Shown one piece after another: positions 1-62,493 of a stretch of 64,000 nucleotides of DNA. Source of the stretch: Hyphomicrobiales bacterium (GTDB lineage Bacteria; Pseudomonadota; Alphaproteobacteria; JAPOUT01). The notes below the pieces were generated by a model. The model saw only the letters and a list, made by a program, of their open reading frames with translations, was not told the origin of the DNA and searched no databases. Numbering within the stretch: the first letter of the stretch is position 1; every line of letters starts with the position of its first letter. A program made the position numbers and the translations under genes. The stretch lies in assembly GCA_026708545.1 (NCBI GenBank), contig JAPOUT010000091.1:946-64945 (forward strand), written 5' to 3'.

Positions 1-3000
1 TCCGCGGTTTCGGCAACGGTATCGTTCACAATTTCGATATCGAAGGTTTCGCTCGTTGCGGGGGCGGTGATGGTCCCGCTTCCGCTGCTGGTTGCGACTT
101 CGCCCGAGGGGGAAACCGACCAATTGAAAGAAATCGGCGAACCCGCGGCGGGCGCGGCGGTGGAGCGAACCGTCAGACTAACGGTGTCGCCCTCGCTCGC
201 AGTCGCGGCGTTGCCGCTGGCGGCAAAACCGAACGTTCCGCTCGGCGCGCTGTCGTTGTCGGTGATGGTGATAACGTGCGTCGTCGGCGAGACAAGCGCC
301 CAGCCGTCCGGCGGACCCGTAATGGTGAGTTCGATGGTCTCGCCGCTCTCCCCGAACACAGAGTCATCGATGATGGTGACGGGGATGTTCACCGTGCGTC
401 CGTTAACGGGAACGGTCACGCTCGAGCCGACGGTGTAATCGCTTCCGCGGGTCGCCCCGCCGCCCGTTGTGATGTTGAGCCTTATGCTGCTGTCGGGATT
501 CGGCGCATTAACTTGAACTTCGGCGTTATACGTTCCGTCTCCCTCGCCGACGGTACCGCTTGCAGATGCAAACTTGATCGTGTTGTCGTCGGCCGCAATG
601 GTGATGGTATGGGTCGTTCGATTCCCCAGCTTCCAGCCCGTCGGCAAACGGGAGCCGAGGGTGACGGTGACATCCTCGGCAGGTTCGGCGACATTGTCCT
701 GCCTGATAACGATGTCGAAGGTCTCGGAGTTGCTGCCGTTTTGAATGGTGACGGTTCCGTCGTCGGTTGCGATGTCGTCGTCACTGTTGTCGGCATCGTC
801 ATTGACCTCCCAGGTCAGATCCAGGTCGGCGGTGGCCGTGGTTGAGGAGCGAACCGTAAGCGTAACGGTTTCGCCTTCACTGCCGCCGGTGCGATTGACG
901 CTGCCGGAACTCGGCGCAAACTGCACCGTGTTGGGCTCGGGATCGTCAACCTCCAGCGTAAAGCTTGTGCCCGCAAGCTCCCAGCCGGCGCTCGAAGGGA
1001 AGCCGCCGCCTTCGCGGAAAGTAACCCCGTAACTGTTGTCGTCATAAGTACTGTCTTGCGGGAACGCCAGCCGCACCTTCGCGCTGCGGCCCGAGTTCGC
1101 CGGTATCGTGTAGGTTGCCGAGCCGGCGTTCCAGTTCCCCGGAACGTCCGGGGACGTGACGGTGATGCCCGAAGGAGCGGTAATGCGTATCGGCAGGGCA
1201 ACCGTGCTTGCATCGTTCAACGACAGGGTCAGGTCGTAATGTCCCGCCGATTCCAAAACAGTGGCCGTCGTCGCCGCAAAAGTGATGCGCCGGTCGTTCG
1301 CGGGAATGTTGATCGTGTGCGTGCGTGTGCCCAGCGACCAGCCCGTCGGCAGATTGGGACCGGTGAGAGTGACGACGACATTCTCGGGACCCTCGGGGTC
1401 GGGCGTAGGCGGGTCGGCAATCGTGAAAGAGAAAGTCGCCCTGCTGCTTCCGCTGTTGACAGTCACGGTTCCGCTGCCGGAGCCGTCAACATCCGAGGCT
1501 CCCGTGGTAACGCTCCAATTAAGGGGAAGCCTAGCGTTCGCGGTTGCAGTGGATGCCACCGCGAGGGTGACGCGCTGGCCCTCGCTTGCGGAAGTCGTAT
1601 TTGAACTCGCGAACCCGACGCTGCCCCTGGGCTCCTCGTTCTCGGGAATGGTGATGGTGTGCACCGTGCGCGTGCCGAAACCCCACCCGTTCGGGAACCC
1701 GTTGGGTGACGGGCGTTCCGAGAGCGTCAGAATGATGGTCTCGTCGCTTTCAGGCTGGTTGTCGACGCCCTGGCTGCGAACCCGGATATTAACGGTGCCT
1801 GTTCCTCCGGGAATGGTGAGGGTCCCGGCTCCGGAGGAATAAGACCCCGCGCCCGGAACGTCAATACTGTATTCGCCGCTGCCTGCGCTCCCGGAAATTC
1901 CAAGGCCGACCTGGATGTCGCCGGCAGCGTGGGGAAGGTTGACGTTAAGGGGGATGATAATTCCGCCGGTGTTGGTTTCTTCAAGCGTCGAACTGCCGCG
2001 CGCAAACTGGATGGTATTGTCGCTGGCATTGATGGAGAACTCGTTGTTGGGCGAAGGGATGCTCCATCCGTCCGGGAAGTTGACGCCCTCCTCGAGAATC
2101 AACCGGACGGTTTCGGCGGCTTCGGCAATCTCGTCGTTAACAATGTTGAAGTCAAAGGTCGCGCTGGTTTGCCCCGCCGGGATGGTGAAACTCCCCCCGG
2201 TCGGAGAGATGTCCCTGGATATGTTGGTGGTGCCGTCTCCGGCGGCCGCCCATCTGAAAGGAAGCCCGCCTGCGGGAGCCGCAACGCCGGTGATTTGAAC
2301 GGTTCGCGTGACAACACCGTCCGTCTCATCGTATTCGGAGGGATTGACGCCGCCGCCGGAGGCCGCAAAGCCGACGGTATTGTCGTTCGCGTTGATGGTC
2401 AGGGTGTGCGTTGTTGCACCGGGATCGAGCCGCCACGGAGACTGCGGGAAAGGACTGCCCCGTGCAATCGTGAATACGACTTCCTCGGCTCTTTCGCCGA
2501 TGGTGTCGGCGTTGACAGTAACCGCAACGGACGCCACCGATTGCGCTACGACTCCCTCATCCGTTCCCGCGGGCACGGTCACGGTTGTCGGGGATGTGAA
2601 GGTAATGTCGGAAGTTTGGCCGCTTGCACTCACGGAAATCGGAACGCCGCCGGCCGGAGCGGGGCGACCGAGCCGCAACAGCAGATGCGTTGTTACCGCT
2701 CCCGCGCCTTCGTCAACCCGGGAAGACGGCGACGCAAAGCCGATGGTGTAGTCGTCGTTGCGCGGAATGGTAATCCGCACGAGACCGTCCAAACGAGCGT
2801 AACGGGAGTTCGCGCCGGTGGTGGTTGCGGCAAGTTCAATGATTTCATCGGTCTCGGAGATGTCGTCGTTGGTGATGGTGATTGTGAGAGTCATGGAACT
2901 CGTGTATTGCGGCAGCACCATCTCGAGGCGTCCGCCCTCGCCGTTTGTCTGCGCTCCGACGGCCACGACCCCCTGTCCCTGCTCCCCTTGCCCCCGCACT

Positions 3001-4317
3001 CCTTGCGACGTTCCCGAAATTGTCGGCGGGGTGACCGTCGCCGCGCCGCTCAAAGCATAGTCGCCGGCATCCGCGCTCGAACGCGCCGTCGCCGCAAACA
3101 CGACCGTAACCTCCCGCTCCAGAGGTTTGTCAAAATCGAACCTCATGGTGAACGGGTCATCGCCCTCCGCGAGCGTTGCGATGGAAGTCTCAATCCGCGC
3201 GACCGCGGGAATAATATCGAAGCGCTCTTCGTAGAGAACGCGCTTCTCGCGCTCGACCAGGCGCCACAAGTCCGGCACCGCCACGCGTCCGCCGCCGCTG
3301 TCGCTGCCTTCGAATCCGGGCAACGAGAAGCGGAACGCCAAGCCTGCGTTCCAGCGCGAGCCCAGGGAGTCATCGGTGTTATGATGCTCATAGCCGCCTT
3401 GCAGGAAGACCCCCGGAAACACTCGGTATTCCCCGGTAAACTGGTGGGAGGTGTGCCAATCTCTTCTAGCCTGCTCGCGCTCTCCCTCAAAACGCCAAAC
3501 GCCGAGAGAGCCGTCGAGGCGGACTCTGTCCAGCGCCAATCCAAGACGGAAATCCGCGCCTTGCAGGGCCTGTTCTTCAAACCCCTCCCGGCCCTTACGC
3601 CAATCGCTCAGCGGATGGTAGTAATTCACATTGGCTTGCAAAACCCCGCTTTGCGCATCCACGCCAACGCCCAGACGACGGTGTCCGCGCCTGAAGTCGT
3701 AGTCGAAAAACAGCGAGCCTCCCACGGCGGTGTCTTTGTCAAGATGCGTGCGAAGGACAAGACCGAAGTTGGCATCAACGCGCTCGGCGCCCTCAAGCCC
3801 GTTCCAGATGACCACGCCGGGCTGCATAAAAAGAGCCGATCCGGTTCCGTCGCCGTATTCCTCGCCCCAAACAGGGAAAACGGCATCAATCTCTCCGTGA
3901 ACGCTTTCATCCAACACCCACGAAATACTCGAGTCCAGACGGAAGCGGTCCTCGAAGAGCGCAATGCCTCCGCTGCGAACGGCGTCTTCAATGGTATCGA
4001 CAAGCATGCGCGAAGCAGTGTTGCGCAACGATTGCCGCGCACATTCGGAGTAGTCGCGCCGGCCGGCATCATTGAGCGCGCTGGTGCTGCCTGTGCCGGT
4101 GCCAATGCCGTCGCCGGAGTTGTAACGATCGAGGGGAATGAAGCCCTGCGTGTCACCGGCATCATGACAGCCGAGAACGCCGCTCCACAGCCTTTCCAGC
4201 GTTTGCGAAGATTTAGAAAAAAGGGTCTCGTCCGCTTGCGACGACGCCGTCACCGCAAACAGAAGCGATATAACCGGAAACAAAAATGTTCTTATTGGAA
4301 CTCTCACACCAACCAAC
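1..4317 (-). CDS. Inverse autotransporter (type Ve, intimin/invasin-family N-terminal beta-barrel) with long Calx-beta-like repeat passenger. It is partial, because the 3' end lies beyond the window start. It has an apparent +1 frameshift in the signal-peptide region and may be a pseudogene.
   Basis: Manual translation of the minus strand from TTG 4317/GTG 4308 gives a signal-peptide-like N-terminus (VGVRVPIRTFLFPVISLL) that hits TAA at 4213-4215. The frame starting around 4253 reads FAVTASSQADETLF..SECARQSLRNTASRMLVDTIEDAVRSGGIALFEDRFRLDSS..FFDYDFRRGHRRLGVGVDAQSG..NYYHPLSDW.., which is collinear with the N-terminal beta-domain of the 7538..11590 ORF. Spot checks at ~1980-2040 and 61-179 show the same frame stays open. 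No stop-terminated ORF of 60 aa or more is listed in that frame anywhere in 1..4290, consistent with an open frame running to the window edge. The long + strand ORFs here (for example 1929..4442) are R/G-rich antisense artefacts. Confidence 0.6.
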
Positions 4318-5646: not shown

Positions 5647-6070
5647 GATACTCGATTACAATATCCTCTTGTGATATTATTCTGCCTCTTTCTCCAGGCT
5701 CATAAGCTTTATACCATGCGCCTTCTTTCCAGTGTGAAATGTTAATCATATCGCCAGCGTCTAAATCATCCATTGCGTTATACATATTTTCCAAATATGT
5801 AAATTCTTTATCGCGGCTTTCTAAACCTTTTTGAAAAAAGAAGACAGAGCTTTCTATCGGATATTTTCCGAACTGCTTAACATGACGGTATAAAGACGGT
5901 AACACAGGCCCATATTCCCACGCTTGGAAATTTTCACCTATCAACTTCTTCTTTTCCCTCCCAGAATAGAACATGTGTGCGAAGTATAGAACTTTCTGCA
6001 ACCGCAAATTGGTTATAGTCCAACTTGATATTTCGCAGAGCGTTTTCCCCGCCACAAGTGAATCGATCAT
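5621..6070 (-). CDS. Panacea-domain (DUF4065, SocA/GepA-like) protein, a putative antitoxin
   Basis: 149 aa. The motif ITNLRLQKVLYFAHMF...FQAWEYGPVLPSLY matches the hallmark K/RLQKLLYFAQ..W.yGPV..lY core of DUF4065. A GAGGTG Shine-Dalgarno sits 6 nt before the ATG. It lies immediately upstream of, and overlaps, a small TM protein gene. Confidence 0.6.
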   Translation of the reverse strand: MIDSLVAGKTLCEISSWTITNLRLQKVLYFAHMFYSGREKKKLIGENFQAWEYGPVLPSLYRHVKQFGKYPIESSVFFFQKGLESRDKEFTYLENMYNAMDDLDAGDMINISHWKEGAWYKAYEPGERGRIISQEDIVIEYHARFGESG

Positions 6071-57139: not shown

Positions 57140-58027
57140 CTACCAGGAAAGATGCGCCATTGCGGCAACGGGCTGCACGTTGTGCGCCTCGTAAAAACGC
57201 TTGAGGCGTTGCGGTGACGGCGTATGCGCATCGTCGCCGACCTCCAGGGCCGCGATACCCCCGGTGATAAAGACAGCATCAATGCCGAAATCACGCGCAC
57301 CGAGAATATCGGTTGCAATGCCGTCGCCGACGGCAAGAACGCGTTTTTTGTCGAGAATGCCTCCGACCTTGCCTTCGAGGATTTTCCATGCATGAAGATA
57401 AATATCCTTGTGTGGTTTGCCGAAGTAGCGCACCTTGCCGCCGAGTGTCTCGTACAGGCGCGCCAGCGCGCCGGCGCACGGCAGGAGATTTTCGCCGCGC
57501 TCAACGATGATGTCGGGATTTGCGCAAACCATGGGTACGGAACGCATCGCCATTCGTTGCAGCAAAGGCCGGTATCCCTCCACCTTTTCGCGCTCGTCGT
57601 CGCGAAGTCCGACACACAGGATGAACTCGGCGGCGTCTTCATTGACGGCGTTGAGGTTGCTTTCTTCAACAAAGCGCCGGTCATGCCCGGGCCCGAGGTA
57701 GAAGCACGCGCGTCCGAGACGCCCGGATGCAAGCGCCTCAAGGGTGACATCCCCGGAAGTGACCACCCCGTCGTAGAGGTCGCCGCCCGCACCGAGAGCT
57801 TCAAGCGACATGCGCGCGTAGGCGTTCAAACGAGGCGCGTTCGAGAACAACAACACGCATCCTCCGCCGTCCCGATAACGCCGCACCGCATCAAGGGCGC
57901 GGGGATGGGCGCGCTCGCCGTTGTGAATGACCCCCCAAACGTCGCACAGGATTGCGTCGTAATTGCGGGCAATGTCGCGCAGCCCCTCCAGCAAGGGGAT
58001 GTCGACGGTGGGAGCATCTAGCGTCAT
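57140..58027 (-). CDS. HAD-superfamily class IIA hydrolase (TIGR01459-like)
   Basis: ILCDVWGVIHNG motif I and the GDGIATDILGA motif IV. Confidence 0.7.
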   Translation of the reverse strand: MTLDAPTVDIPLLEGLRDIARNYDAILCDVWGVIHNGERAHPRALDAVRRYRDGGGCVLLFSNAPRLNAYARMSLEALGAGGDLYDGVVTSGDVTLEALASGRLGRACFYLGPGHDRRFVEESNLNAVNEDAAEFILCVGLRDDEREKVEGYRPLLQRMAMRSVPMVCANPDIIVERGENLLPCAGALARLYETLGGKVRYFGKPHKDIYLHAWKILEGKVGGILDKKRVLAVGDGIATDILGARDFGIDAVFITGGIAALEVGDDAHTPSPQRLKRFYEAHNVQPVAAMAHLSW

Positions 58028-58094
58028 GGTTATGCTTTCGATAGCGAGGGTTTACGATTTCGTCAAGAGAGGTTTTTATGCTATCGCTTGTAGC

Positions 58095-58550
58095 ATGGAA
58101 AAGATATTACGTTTCTTTCGGACCGAGGAGCCGTCCCCGCCTTCGCCCTGCGACGGAATGGATGCGGGGGATTTTGCCGCTATATGCCTGCTCGTCTCCG
58201 CAGCCTATATTGAGGACGGATGCGATCCTCGCGAGGAAGCCGCGCTGCGTCGAATGGCGGTTGATGGATTCAACCTGGATGCCGGTGAAGCCGAGGCGTT
58301 GTTGTCGCTGGCCGTCTCGGAAGAACAAGAAGCAAGCGATTTGTTCCGCTGGACAAAACGCGTAAACGAATCCTACGAATACGAGCGCAAAATCGGCTTG
58401 CTGGAGAAGATGTGGGAAGTTGTTGCCAGCGACGGGGTCATCGGAGACTTCGAATCCAATTTGTTGCGAAGGGTTTCGGGACTGTTGTATGTTAGCGACA
58501 AAGATGCGGGGGAAGCTCGCCGCCGAGTGCTGCTTCGAATGGAAGGATAA
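58095..58550 (+). CDS. TerB-like (tellurite-resistance TerB / DjlA N-terminal fold) protein
   Basis: Acidic helical repeat pattern (…[24 protein letters not shown]…[37 protein letters not shown]). Start at MEKILRFF. Confidence 0.5.
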
Positions 58551-58555
58551 GAGAA

Positions 58556-58894
58556 ATGACGTTTCTGGTAACAGAGTCTTGCATTCGTTGCAAGTATACG
58601 GACTGCGTTGAGGTATGTCCGGTCGATTGCTTCTACGAGGGAGAGAATATGCTGGTCATTCATCCCGACGAATGCATTGACTGCGGCGTTTGCGTCGTCG
58701 AATGCCCTGTTGATGCCATCATTCCCGATGATGAGGACCCGGACGGCCGGTGGTTGAAATTGAACGCCGAATACTCGCAGAAATGGCCAAACATTCTCGA
58801 GAAGCACGACCCTCCCGCCGATGCCGACGACTTCAAGGAAGAATCGGACAAATTTGCCCGTTTTTTCTCCGAATCTCCCGGCGAAGGCGATTGA
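58556..58894 (+). CDS. fdxA: 7Fe ferredoxin (FdxA type)
   Basis: [19 protein letters not shown]...[12 protein letters not shown] cysteine clusters for [3Fe-4S][4Fe-4S]. Confidence 0.9.
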
Positions 58895-59228
58895 ATCACC
58901 TTCGAATCACCGGCGGCATACCTCAAAATCGCTCCAAAACCGCGGGAAAACTCCTCAAATCGCCGTGAACGCTTGGCTTCCGAAGGAGAATCGGTTATAC
59001 TGCGCGCTGGGATAAACAAATAGGCGCCTTCGCGGCAACGCAAGCGGGCGCGCGTTGGGTGATAGAGGCGCAAGAATTTCAGAGATTTCCGGTGTCGGCG
59101 AAGGCAGATTCGCCGGGAATCCCCCTTCCCCACATTTCCCATCCCAGTTGGTTCCGGATTTTTCCGGCGTGTTGCTTGCCTCAAACGGCATGCGACGGAT
59201 TTTTCGATTGGTAGGTTAAGGTTAGAAC

Positions 59229-60218
59229 ATGAGCGGCACGACAACATCAAAGAAGAAAAAGAAAACAACGAACAAAAAGCGCGTTTCGAACAGTAGCAAG
59301 CCTGCGGCAAAAAAAGCGGCGAGCGGGTCGAAGCGCACGGCTTCAAGTAGGACAAGCACGAGCAGGTCGAGAGCATCGGCGCGCCGGTCGGCTACGAAGA
59401 AAACCGCGCGTGCAAAATCACGAACAAAGGCAAAAATCGGTGTAAAAGCCAAGGCCAAGAGGCCTGCAAGTTCGAAGGCCAAGGCCAAAGTTAAAGTTAA
59501 GTCAAAAACTAAAATAAAAACCAAGGTCAAAACCAAAGTAAAAGCCAAAACCAAGGTAAAGGTTAAAGCTAAAGTTAAAACCAAGTCTTCTTCGAGAAGC
59601 CGGCCGAGCACGAAGAAGGTTGCCGTCAAAAAGAAACCGTCGGCCACCAAAGCGAAAACTGCAAAGCATGCCGATATTCGGAGAGGCGGCAGTACCAAGC
59701 GGAATGATGCGCCTTTTAGGGCGGGGGAGTTCGTCGTATGCCCCCCCCATGGCGTCGGAAAGATTCTTGAAATAAGCAAGCAAACCATTGATGATACGCT
59801 CCAGGAACAGGCCAAGATTGAGTTTGAGCGTGAAAAATTCATCATGCGCATTCCACTGCTTAAGACGGAGAATGTCGGATTGCGGCGCTTATCGGAAAGA
59901 TCGGTCGTCACCAAGGCGATGGAAACTTTGCGCCGTCGCGCGCAGGTCAAGCGAACCATGTGGTCACGTCGTTCGCAAGAATACAATACGAAGATTAACT
60001 CAGGGGATTTGATCTCGATTGCCGAAGTAACGCGGGATTTGTTTCGGCCGCACCGTCAAGCCGAGCAATCTTATTCGGAGCGCCAACTATATGAGGCCGC
60101 ACTTGACCGCATCGTTCAAGAAATTGCCGTCATTCACGGCATTAGCGAAGAATCCGCCCTCAAAAGGATTGAGAACAACCTGCAACGCGCCTATGCACCG
60201 TCCGAGGTGATGGCGTAA
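59229..60218 (+). CDS. CarD/CdnL-family RNA-polymerase-binding transcription factor with a ~165-aa N-terminal Lys/Ala/Ser/Thr-rich histone-H1-like extension
   Basis: The C-terminal ~160 aa carries the CarD_CdnL_TRCF motif FRAGEFVVCPPHGVGKILEI.... The N-terminus is an uninterrupted frame of KAKAK/KTKVK repeats encoded by an AT-rich tandem repeat. Confidence 0.7.
   Translation: MSGTTTSKKKKKTTNKKRVSNSSKPAAKKAASGSKRTASSRTSTSRSRASARRSATKKTARAKSRTKAKIGVKAKAKRPASSKAKAKVKVKSKTKIKTKVKTKVKAKTKVKVKAKVKTKSSSRSRPSTKKVAVKKKPSATKAKTAKHADIRRGGSTKRNDAPFRAGEFVVCPPHGVGKILEISKQTIDDTLQEQAKIEFEREKFIMRIPLLKTENVGLRRLSERSVVTKAMETLRRRAQVKRTMWSRRSQEYNTKINSGDLISIAEVTRDLFRPHRQAEQSYSERQLYEAALDRIVQEIAVIHGISEESALKRIENNLQRAYAPSEVMA
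59440..59585 (+). repeat. AT-rich degenerate tandem repeat (aaa-gyn units) encoding KxK repeats inside the carD-like gene
   Basis: aaagttaaagttaagtcaaaaactaaaataaaaaccaaggtcaaaaccaaagtaaaagccaaaaccaaggtaaaggttaaagctaaagttaaaacc. Confidence 0.6.
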
Positions 60219-60232
60219 GGGACCGAACCCTT

Positions 60233-61273
60233 TTAGAAGCGGTCGATAACGACAAAGCCCTGTGTATTGAAATCGCTCATGTCGCTCAGGACATTGCCGG
60301 TTTCCTCGAGACTGACCGTTTTGGAAACAAGTTGCAGGGGGTCAAGCCTCCCGTCGGAAACCAATCGTAACAGTGTGTCGAGATTGTTAGCGGGCATTCC
60401 CTTGGAACCGATGAGGGAGAGTTCTCTTTCAATGATGCTGTCAACCGGAAGCGCAATGGCGTCAATGCCGTCGCTCATGCCGACCTGCACATGGCGGCCG
60501 CGCTTGCGCAGCGATAACAGGGCGTTTCTGCAAGTCTGTTCGTGTCCGAGGGCGTCAAGGGCGATGTGCGCGCCTCCCCCGGTGATGTCACGCACGGCTT
60601 CGGGGGCATCGGCAATGTCTTTGGCGTTAATGGTTGCGTAGGCGCCAAGCGTCTTGGCAAGTGCGAGCGCCTCATCGCTGATGTCGACACAAACGGGATG
60701 AGCACCGGCGGCCACGGCGATTTGCACAGCCGACAACCCCACGCCTCCGCACCCGTAGACGGCAACCCATTCGCCGGCATTGAGGTTGGCGCGCGTAACA
60801 AGTGCGTGGAAAGCCGTGATGAATCGGCAACCCATGCCTGCGGCTGCGACGTCATCAATGTTTTCGGGAAGCGTTGCGAGGTTGAAATCGGCGTGTTGGA
60901 CGGCAACATATTCGGCGAAGCCTCCCCAGTGCGAAAATCCTGGCGTGAAGGGGAAATCGCAGATATTGGAGCGTCCGGCACGGCATTGCGGGCACGTGCC
61001 TTCGCCGCCACAGAAAGGAATGAGCACACGCTCGCCTTTGGAGAAACGTGCCACTCCTCCGCCAACTTCTTCGATAATGCCGCACATTTCATGACCGAGA
61101 ACATGGGGAAGTTTGAAGAAGTCCGCCCAATGCCCTTTCCATGCATGCCAGTCGGAACGGCAGATTCCGCATGCGAGCACACGCACAATCACGCCGTGCT
61201 CGGATACATGCGGGTCGGCAACCTCGCGCACCGGCATGGGTGCGTTGTAGGCCTCAAGAAGCGCGGCTTTCAT
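60233..61273 (-). CDS. Zinc-dependent alcohol dehydrogenase (MDR family)
   Basis: GICRSDWH zinc-ligand motif and the GCGGVG Rossmann motif. 346 aa. Confidence 0.85.
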   Translation of the reverse strand: MKAALLEAYNAPMPVREVADPHVSEHGVIVRVLACGICRSDWHAWKGHWADFFKLPHVLGHEMCGIIEEVGGGVARFSKGERVLIPFCGGEGTCPQCRAGRSNICDFPFTPGFSHWGGFAEYVAVQHADFNLATLPENIDDVAAAGMGCRFITAFHALVTRANLNAGEWVAVYGCGGVGLSAVQIAVAAGAHPVCVDISDEALALAKTLGAYATINAKDIADAPEAVRDITGGGAHIALDALGHEQTCRNALLSLRKRGRHVQVGMSDGIDAIALPVDSIIERELSLIGSKGMPANNLDTLLRLVSDGRLDPLQLVSKTVSLEETGNVLSDMSDFNTQGFVVIDRF

Positions 61274-62493
61274 CGTGCACCGTCTGCAGGCTGCGCATGC
61301 TTGAAATCAACGGGTTCGCGTGACATTTCCAAATGCAGCCCGTTACCGTTGTAGGGATGGGCGCGTGCGACTTTTTCGTTTAACTCAATGCCAAGTCCCG
61401 GTGAATCAGGCGGGATGATATAGCCCTCCTCCCAGCGAAAACCTTCGCGCAAAAGCTCGCCGTGAAAACCGTCCATCTTGCCGATGCTCTCGAGTATCAA
61501 AAAGTTGGGGATGCAAGTTGCAAGTTGAATGTTTGCAGCGGCAACGATCGGGCCGCAATACAGGTGCGGAGCGATCTGCGCATGATGCACTTCCGCGAGT
61601 GCCGCAATTTTTTTGCCCTCAAAAATTCCGCCCGAGCGCCCCAGATCCGGCTGCAGAATGGATGCGGCATTGCACGAGAGCAGCCTGGCGAATTCGTACT
61701 TTGTTGTAAGTCGCTCGCCTGCCGCAACGGGAACGTCGGTGTTTGCAGCGACCTTTGCCATGGCTTCGGGCATGTCGGGCGGGACAGGCTCCTCAAACCA
61801 GAGAGGTTCGAAGGCCTCGATCCGGCGCGCCAGCCGCAAGGCCCCCGAGGGCGTGAACTGCCCGTGCGTTCCGAACAACAAATCGGCGCGTTCGCCTACG
61901 GCTTCGCGTATGAGTTGCATAAATTGTTCGCACCGTTCGAGCACGGCAGGCGTGGGTTGATCGGGTCCGAATGCGGAATATGCTCCGGCGGGGTCAAACT
62001 TTACCGCGCTGAAACCCTCCTCGACGAGCTCCGCCGCGCGCTCTGCAGACATTTGCGCATCCGCATAAAATTGCTCCGCGTCCTGTTCATCGCCGGGATA
62101 GAGGTATGTGTAACAGCGCAAACGGTCTCGAACCTTTCCGCCGAGCAGCATGTAGACGGGTTTATCGAGCGCCTTGCCGACGATGTCCCAACAGCACATC
62201 TCGAGCGCGCTAAACGCCCCCATAGTGGTTATATCGGGACGCTGCGAAAATCCCGAACCATAAACACGGCGAAACAAGCTCTCGATTTGAAACGGGCTTT
62301 CATTCAGGAAATATCGCTCAAAGACGTCCTTGATGACTCCTTCCATCACCTTGGGGCCGACGTTTGCGGCGTAGGCCTCTCCGACTCCCGTAACGCCGCA
62401 CGCCGACGTCGCTTTCACGAACAGAAAGTAACGCCCTCCCCTGCCCGGCTTGGGATTTCCGACAGTGAAGATTTCCAGATTGCCGAGACGCAT
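61270..62493 (-). CDS. Enolase-superfamily enzyme (mandelate racemase / sugar-acid dehydratase-like, e.g. mannonate/galactonate dehydratase)
   Basis: 407 aa. The N-terminal capping domain plus the (beta/alpha)7beta barrel pattern is typical of the MR/MLE family. It overlaps the ADH start by 4 nt. Confidence 0.75.
   Translation of the reverse strand: MRLGNLEIFTVGNPKPGRGGRYFLFVKATSACGVTGVGEAYAANVGPKVMEGVIKDVFERYFLNESPFQIESLFRRVYGSGFSQRPDITTMGAFSALEMCCWDIVGKALDKPVYMLLGGKVRDRLRCYTYLYPGDEQDAEQFYADAQMSAERAAELVEEGFSAVKFDPAGAYSAFGPDQPTPAVLERCEQFMQLIREAVGERADLLFGTHGQFTPSGALRLARRIEAFEPLWFEEPVPPDMPEAMAKVAANTDVPVAAGERLTTKYEFARLLSCNAASILQPDLGRSGGIFEGKKIAALAEVHHAQIAPHLYCGPIVAAANIQLATCIPNFLILESIGKMDGFHGELLREGFRWEEGYIIPPDSPGLGIELNEKVARAHPYNGNGLHLEMSREPVDFKHAQPADGAR

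Follow-up and report, generated by a model that had tools for sequence, protein, structure and literature searches.

The 64,000-nucleotide (nt) stretch of contig JAPOUT010000091.1 from a Hyphomicrobiales bacterium that we analysed (the window) contains, at 59229..60218 on the forward strand, one uninterrupted open reading frame (ORF) of 329 amino acids (aa). We are highly confident that the ORF is a genuine gene, encoding a CdnL/CarD-type factor with a translated, 160-residue tail that begins at ATG 59229. CdnL/CarD proteins are general, often essential, regulators of open-complex stability and, judged by its sequence, the locus is the host's CdnL orthologue, a housekeeping CarD-family factor that binds RNA polymerase (RNAP). 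The original prediction, made from the DNA alone, was of a Lys-rich tail in one frame that runs directly into a CdnL/CarD core, and Pfam matches, the ORF reading, alignments and the ratio of non-synonymous to synonymous substitution rates (dN/dS) agree with it. The most concrete outcome of the analysis is a corrected gene model for cdnL.

The C-terminal core is a standard CdnL

The C-terminal 169 residues are those of a standard CdnL, as shown by both Pfam domains, phmmer, Foldseek, conserved residues and gene order. The RNAP-interacting domain (RID; CarD_TRCF_RID, PF02559) matched aa 163-220 with 29.9 bits (cutoff 23), and CarD_C (PF21095) matched aa 229-314 with 84.1 bits (cutoff 23.1); the protein stops 15 residues past the latter. 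With phmmer, hits were obtained to M. xanthus CdnL (2lwj, 9e-16) and M. tuberculosis (Mtb) CarD (4kbm, 7e-14). AlphaFold2 (AF2) modelled the core (aa 161-322) as a beta module and five helices with a predicted local distance difference test score (pLDDT) of ~90 or more, the beta strands lying at 168-209 with pLDDT >90. Foldseek matched this core to Mtb CarD in the open promoter complex (RPo; 6edt_M, template modelling (TM) score 0.88, root-mean-square deviation 2.1 Å), and also to T. thermophilus CarD (4l5g_A, TM 0.84) and M. xanthus CdnL (2lwj).

Among 60 homologues W245, P209, V170 and P172 were invariant, and R207 nearly so. W245 aligned with the Trp in tnWsrr, and R207-x-P209 with tvRvP, of the actinobacterial CarD chain 8hvr_H. 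We take W245 to be the counterpart of Mtb CarD W85, the conserved Trp of the C-terminal domain, and R207-x-P209 is presumably the counterpart of R47-V-P49 in the Mtb CarD RID. On this sequence evidence the core is a bona fide CdnL, which is expected to contact the beta-1 lobe of RNAP and to stabilise open complexes.

The tail is almost certainly translated

After ATG 59229, the next in-frame start candidate is the Met of FIMRIP, which lies within the RID. The ATG is likewise the sole in-frame start 5' of the RID in five related loci (L002-L006), and the N-terminus, MSGTT..KKKKTT.KKRVS..KPAA.K...SRSR.SARR..TKK, recurs together with its start in independent assemblies of the relatives. One of these, L003, is a 99.8% identical metagenome-assembled genome (MAG) that encodes the identical 329-aa protein, with 12 mismatches over 6.4 kb, and another, L002, is a 2.8-Mb chromosome-level Parvibaculaceae MAG (OY734805.1) in which the tail is present and in frame. 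The start and the first ~70 residues were also kept at greater distances, in L001 (~91% nt identity in the flanks) and in L002 and L004-L006 (~85% nt identity).

The tail also evolves as a coding sequence. In a frame-blind MAFFT alignment of the DNA, the pairwise indels were all multiples of 3 (3, 3, 3, 15, 18, 12, 15; 6, 252, 3, 12; and 3, 3, 6, 15, 6, 264, 15). When the six frames of the tail region were compared, the sense frame had no stops and the lowest dN/dS (0.19-0.33), followed by the open antisense frame (0.39-0.46) and the remaining frames (0.5-1.8); the core gave 0.055-0.078 in the same comparison with relatives. Thus the sole start, the recurring N-terminus, the multiple-of-3 indels and the lowest dN/dS in the sense frame together make it almost certain that the tail is translated.

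Public annotations truncate cdnL

Public annotations shorten cdnL to 151-161 aa, at the cost of some or all of the RID. The NCBI annotation of L003 (GCA_026708445.1) and of L004-L006 has a 151/152-aa 'CarD family' or 'hypothetical' protein that starts within the RID (P0121, P0122); the 151-aa product has lost the RID, and its precomputed Pfam match is to CarD_C only. Over the Lys-rich codons of the same genomes, antisense ORFs of 166-209 aa without a Pfam hit were called. The call in L007 starts at a GTG inside GEFVVYP, between the F and the first V, with 245 codons open upstream of it. In L001 and L008 the calls are cut by scaffold N-gaps inside the Lys-rich repeats (~5760-5861 and ~1380-1480, respectively). 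Short-read assemblies break in this repeat region, and the length of the gap scrambles the frame in L008.

Five close relatives appeared to be tail-less (P0001, P0121, P0122, P0123 and P0006). All five had a start called downstream of a Lys-rich in-frame region; three of the calls were accompanied by an antisense ORF call, and the other two abut a scaffold gap. The tail was continuous with the core in four of the five; the link is probable in L008, where the Lys-rich ORF enters the gap in a different frame. In practical terms, gene callers systematically truncate cdnL and a spurious antisense protein is annotated in addition. Length statistics published for CdnL may be affected by this truncation, and we suggest that the long 5' intergenic regions reported for cdnL are possibly affected too.

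Composition of the tail and of its DNA

The tail (aa 1-160) is composed of 29% K, 16% S, 14% A, 12.5% T, 9% R, 7% V and 2.5% P. It contains 2 acidic residues and no aromatics, and has a net charge of +60 and a pI of ~12. At aa 83-120 it has an unbroken alternating (K-x)n run of 38 residues, KAKAKVKVKSKTKIKTKVKTKVKAKTKVKVKAKVKTKS, and the gene is the sole ORF of the window with a 40-aa stretch of >40% Lys. The long K/A/S/T/R low complexity that had been foreseen is therefore there, at ~160 residues and not the ~165 given.

The predicted AT-rich tandem repeats held up in part. The DNA is AT-rich only at ~59400-59625, where its GC content is 0.39-0.41 vs ~0.55 in the flanks. Tandem Repeats Finder reported periods of 6, 12 and 30 nt at 63-86% matches, and the copies are 60-76% identical; 'tandem repeat' is somewhat too strong a term for copies this degenerate. 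The repeats are a degenerate (AAR-NNN)n dipeptide pattern, with no clean microsatellite.

In the AF2 model, which used a 60-sequence alignment, aa 1-160 had pLDDT ~47-57 and no secondary structure, and the tail is predicted to be disordered. When searched alone against Pfam at E values of up to 10, the tail gave only a spurious match to Omp28 (E 1.8) and no H1 or HC2 match. NCBIfam matches on the protein (mfd, TolA and others) were far under their cutoffs and were rejected as low-complexity noise, and the AT-hook motif RGRP is absent from the whole 329-aa sequence. The C-terminal domains of histone H1 are typically K/A/P-rich; the K content of the tail (29%) fits this, while its A (14%) and P (2.5%) contents are low and its S+T (28%) and R (9%) contents high. 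The description of the tail as histone-H1-like is thus right for its charge but not for its profile matches or its A and P content, and a KxKx/S/T/R type describes it better.

The middle of the tail turns over between species

Tail length differs by species, at 143 aa in L002, 160 aa in the window and at least 244 aa in L001. Three blocks are conserved among these sequences: aa 1-70, the last 40 residues ahead of the RID, and a KRP..SK motif. The middle part varies in both length and sequence: in the window it is 38 residues of KxKx, and in L002 a short K/S/R version. In L001 (5645-5944) it contains at least 11 copies, 92-95% identical, of the 18-nt unit CCAAGGCCAGCGCCAAGC, which encodes KPKAS[AT], and is crossed by the scaffold gap. 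The sequence of L001, with flanks at ~91% nt identity, indicates that the AT-rich KxKx block was replaced there by GC-rich 18-nt repeats, probably in a recent in-frame expansion. Consistent with a variable middle, blastn alignments to relatives break across ~59360/59416-59600/59696.

Length was constant within species. The tails of the window and L003 are equal, and those of the sister-species MAGs L004, L005 and L006 differ by point substitutions only. Repeat turnover is therefore visible between species, and not as rapid, phase-like variation; the idea that the repeats drive length variation stands in the first sense only.

Beyond the closest relatives, the likeness between tails fades. In Smith-Waterman alignments tested against 300 composition-preserving shuffles, z reached ~5 only for P0003 and P0065, and was ~1 for the tails of Bradyrhizobium, Afipia, Tardiphaga and Parvibaculum. 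A z of ~1 outside the nearest clade fits both fast divergence from a common origin and repeated gain.

N-terminal tails are widespread among CdnL proteins of Hyphomicrobiales

A search with the full protein returned mostly 'CarD family transcriptional regulators' of 250-418 aa with K/A/P/S/T-rich N-termini, from Bradyrhizobium, Afipia, Tardiphaga, Rhodopseudomonas, Xanthobacteraceae and Parvibaculum. A core-only query was used to avoid low-complexity word bias, and 42 of its 120 closest matches had a tail of at least 30 aa; all but one of these tails were net basic, and most were K/A/P/T-rich. We also surveyed the best 150 representatives of clusters at 50% identity, in 146 of which the core motif could be located. 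An extension of at least 60 aa, and up to ~380 aa, was present in 115 of the 146, a count that exaggerates the share of tailed forms because hypervariable tails split into many clusters. The median composition of the 115 tails was 23% A, 14% K and 9% P, with a net charge of +15 per 100 aa. The longest tailed proteins, including those of a Methylocella sp. and other Hyphomicrobiales, reach ~550 aa. Short forms exist as well (Tepidicaulis marinus, 172 aa; Azorhizobium, 198 aa).

Many of the long-tailed homologues (P0228-P0373) begin with M-x-[ST]-x-KK-x-x-K (MRSVKKTIKS, MSSVKKIGKS, MATRKKVTRK; the window protein has MSGTTTSKKKKK), and their tails end in ..KKP[VL].QR[HQ]G ahead of the RID. From these sequences, the long-tailed homologues may have gained tail length through insertions flanked by two short conserved ends.

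A survey from 2010 already listed, without comment, alphaproteobacterial proteins of 143-456 aa (PMC2919716). Our full-text literature searches turned up no paper that describes basic tails at the N-terminus of CdnL, this length range being the only trace. A basic disordered N-terminus joined to CdnL is thus a widespread architecture, visible in databases and functionally uncharacterised, rather than a one-off, and among its clade this locus is nothing out of the ordinary. The starting view that alphaproteobacterial CdnL is normally tail-less was too strong, given these two surveys, and that of a CarD variant particular to this genome fell with it, as comparable basic tails occur in many Hyphomicrobiales.

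A proposed role for the tail and its rivals

What might the tail do? We lean, a little beyond even confidence, towards a CdnL core whose tail serves as a non-sequence-specific electrostatic anchor to nucleic acid. In the host, an uncultured marine Hyphomicrobiales/Parvibaculaceae-like bacterium, the 329-aa protein would be made from ATG 59229. By homology, its Tudor-like RID would dock on the RNAP beta-1 lobe and the conserved Trp of its helical domain would wedge at the upstream edge of the -10 bubble, which would stabilise open complexes at sigma-70/sigma-A promoters, for example rRNA promoters. The disordered +60 tail would anchor CdnL to nucleic acid electrostatically and non-specifically; this would keep CdnL on the nucleoid or on DNA upstream of promoters, with a higher local concentration and residence time at RNAP-promoter complexes. 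By analogy, this role would be that of the HMGA-like or H1-like basic disordered C-terminal domain of myxobacterial CarD. Selection would act on charge, composition and frame and not on sequence, so that the middle of the tail could expand and contract by in-frame gain and loss of repeats between species. We infer this function from the +60 charge, the zero aromatics, the predicted disorder and the recurrence of basic tails.

Several points weigh against an anchor of this kind. A low pLDDT indicates disorder only indirectly. The ligand might be RNA, polyphosphate, ribosomes or the membrane rather than DNA. The evolutionary rate of the tail is 3-5 times that of the core, and past close relatives its likeness is compositional only. 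CdnL proteins with a short tail or none function in Caulobacter and appear in the annotations of Tepidicaulis and Azorhizobium; the tail is therefore accessory, and many lineages do without it. Mycobacterial CdnL is believed to be brought to promoters by RNAP alone and not by binding DNA (PMC4374960). Finally, Caulobacter CdnL was impaired by a FLAG tag at its N-terminus (PMC5324124), so an addition at this end need not be neutral.

A possible, though doubtful, alternative is that the tail is translated but has another role: binding of RNA, nascent rRNA or polyphosphate, formation of RNAP condensates, or service as an entropic spacer, a solubility tag or a means of tuning CdnL turnover. A polycationic, disordered tail of conserved composition fits such roles equally well, and the levels of Caulobacter CdnL are controlled by proteolysis (PMC5324124), the window protein having no AA/VA C-terminus. 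However, none of the evidence singles out RNA, polyphosphate or proteolysis, and DNA binding is the one role with experimental precedent for a basic intrinsically disordered region on a CarD-type scaffold (PMC4374960).

We regard it as unlikely that the tail is near-neutral, that is, a slippage expansion tolerated in a permissive N-terminal linker and hitch-hiking on an essential gene. Quick divergence, lengths of 0 to ~380 aa among close core homologues, the recent near-perfect 18-nt expansions in L001 and a cross-family likeness that is compositional only would all fit such a segment. Its dN/dS is nevertheless clearly <1, the bias to positive charge is consistent over the 115 tails, and the N-terminal and linker blocks are conserved. 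In addition, the frame has been kept over at least 12 indel events, and drift would not hold a charge of +38 per 100 residues with almost no acidic residues.

It is very improbable that the Lys-rich region is untranslated, with a CdnL of ~170 or 151 aa preceded by a long 5' leader, or with the antisense ORF as the real gene. Public annotations do call the 151-152-aa products (P0121, P0122) and the antisense ORFs, P0001 and P0123 are calls of the same kind, and long cdnL 5' leaders have been reported in alphaproteobacteria (PMC5324124). A downstream start was rejected, as no in-frame ATG, GTG or TTG lies between 59229 and the RID and the 151-aa product would lose that domain; the indels, the sense-frame dN/dS and the conserved N-terminus set out above argue the same way, and a separate conserved leader of 334 nt still lies 5' of 59229. 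The antisense ORF (59222..59986) was rejected as a real gene since its dN/dS is above that of the sense frame, it overlaps conserved RID codons, its length ranges over 166-335 aa among relatives and it has no Pfam hit.

Least credible of all is an assembly artefact, a collapsed or chimeric repeat: although N-gaps lie within the repeat region in the short-read scaffolds of L001 and L008, misassembly was rejected because the identical ORF is present in an independent MAG and an intact in-frame tail in three further MAGs and the chromosome-level assembly, and because the window repeats are too degenerate to collapse easily.

Returning to the electrostatic anchor, we offer a wider proposal more tentatively, as a possibility well short of even confidence. 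In much of Hyphomicrobiales, a hypervariable polycationic tail might have turned an RNAP-recruited CdnL into a DNA- or nucleoid-resident factor, maybe with condensates at rRNA promoters, convergent with the HMGA/H1-like domains at the opposite end of myxobacterial CarD, and tail length might tune global promoter kinetics between species. The model members of CdnL/CarD are believed to locate promoters by way of RNAP and not of DNA. If basic tails do give CdnL nucleic-acid affinity, the mechanism known from Mycobacterium, Myxococcus and Caulobacter could not be transferred unchanged to Hyphomicrobiales, including rhizobia and relatives of methanotrophs, and a CarD-type module would have been joined for a second time, independently, to a basic disordered domain that binds DNA. 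The hypothesis that a global transcription factor has convergently gained a DNA anchor at its opposite end is testable and touches many important Hyphomicrobiales.

Gene features, leader and neighbourhood

Table 1. Positions of cdnL features and nearby elements (window coordinates unless a related locus is named).
Feature	Position	Strand	Basis or remark
Promoter-like TTGGCT-17-TATACT, in the leader between fdxA and cdnL	58973..59001	+	9/12 consensus matches; weak, consensus-only
Shine-Dalgarno-like AAGG	59218..59221	+	7 nt 5' of ATG; read from sequence; kept in L001, L002
Upstream in-frame stop TAG	59223-59225	+	one codon ahead of ATG 59229
Start codon ATG	59229..59231	+	sole in-frame ATG/GTG/TTG between upstream stop and RID
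Polycationic low-complexity N-terminal tail, aa 1-160	59229..59708	+	composition, AF2, dN/dS
Hypervariable (Lys-x)n tail core, aa 83-120, KAKAKVKVKSKTKIKTKVKTKVKAKTKVKVKAKVKTKS	59475..59588	+	degenerate AT-rich 6/12/18-nt repeats
RNAP-interacting domain CarD_TRCF_RID, Tudor-like beta module, aa 163-220, with R207-I-P209	59715..59888	+	Pfam, alignment, AF2, Foldseek
CarD C-terminal helical domain, aa 229-314, with invariant Trp245 (TMWSRR)	59913..60170	+	Pfam, alignment, AF2, Foldseek
Stop codon; protein ends ...APSEVMA	60216..60218	+	ORF reading
Antisense shadow ORF, 254 aa, L/F/V/T-rich	59222..59986	-	by-product of Lys-rich coding strand
Called antisense ORFs in relatives	L003 2460-3089; L004-6 2526-3026; L007 595-1158	-	public annotations, hypothetical proteins

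The region from the fdxA stop to the cdnL ATG (58895-59228) is 334 nt long, and ~90% of its alignment columns are identical in three relatives that have 85-91% nt identity overall. A hairpin, CCGGA-TTTT-TCCGG, lies within it at 59154-59167. Unusually long 5' intergenic regions or leaders of cdnL have been noted in alphaproteobacteria, and the 334-nt leader fits them (PMC5324124). Searches of Rfam gave no match in 58700-60400 at E values of up to 1 and none at gathering score across the window, and no tRNAs were found.

At 57140-62493, the conserved gene order is a HAD hydrolase, a TerB-domain protein, a 112-aa fdxA-like ferredoxin and cdnL, with convergent Zn-alcohol dehydrogenase and enolase-superfamily (MR_MLE) genes on the 3' side of cdnL. 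This order is common to the window, L001, L003-L006 and L008; L007 (68% core identity) differs downstream.

At its C-terminus the protein ends in ...SEVMA (60204-60215) and so is without the usual AA/VA. That ending is present in >80% of alphaproteobacterial CdnL proteins and is implicated in ClpXP-dependent turnover in Caulobacter (PMC5324124). The marine (Tara) homologue in L008 (1501-2055, P0006) has a C-terminal Pro/Asp/Lys repeat extension, PPPPNPDKPDKPDKTEKTE, which is absent from the window protein.

Comparison with known systems

The CdnL/CarD proteins of Caulobacter, M. xanthus, M. tuberculosis and T. thermophilus have the same two-domain core, Trp wedge and R-x-P motif as the window protein, and its predicted role is the same. 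Characterised members are standalone proteins of 160-200 residues, which is also how CdnL has been defined (PMC4374960); the window protein adds a 160-aa polycationic disordered N-terminus and, at 329 aa, falls outside that definition. Its core is orthologous to CdnL and not a CarD paralogue, and the gene is in synteny with fdxA, as it is at other Hyphomicrobiales-like loci.

Entries from Rhodopseudomonas, Bradyrhizobium, Afipia, Tardiphaga, Parvibaculum and Methylocella have the same architecture, with basic tails of 46-380 aa and cores that are 54-60% identical. Their tails are mostly A/K/P-rich (AKKP type), some with precomputed HC2 (PF07382) hits, whereas the window tail is K/S/T/R/V-rich with a KxKx block, a style that it has in common only with P0003 and P0065.

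Lys-rich, polycationic, low-complexity segments, which presumably condense or anchor DNA, are also found in mycobacterial HupB, Chlamydia Hc1/Hc2 and Pseudomonas AlgP. These have no sequence homology to the window tail, as judged by the lack of a significant Pfam hit, and the domain to which the segment is attached differs.

The closest functional analogy is with myxobacterial CarD, which likewise joins a CarD-type RNAP-binding module to a basic disordered segment. A 2009 study by Garcia-Heras et al. reportedly described this C-terminal domain as HMGA-like in M. xanthus and histone-H1-like in Anaeromyxobacter. Myxobacterial CarD is further characterised by a partner protein, CarG, and by a link to ECF sigma factors. 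As had been predicted, the tail of the window protein is on the opposite end from that DNA-binding domain. The myxobacterial segment is C-terminal, while the window tail is N-terminal and has neither AT-hooks (RGRP) nor an acidic region. Since it has no AT-hook and no Pfam H1/HC2 match, the tail owes nothing to the HMGA tail of CarD.

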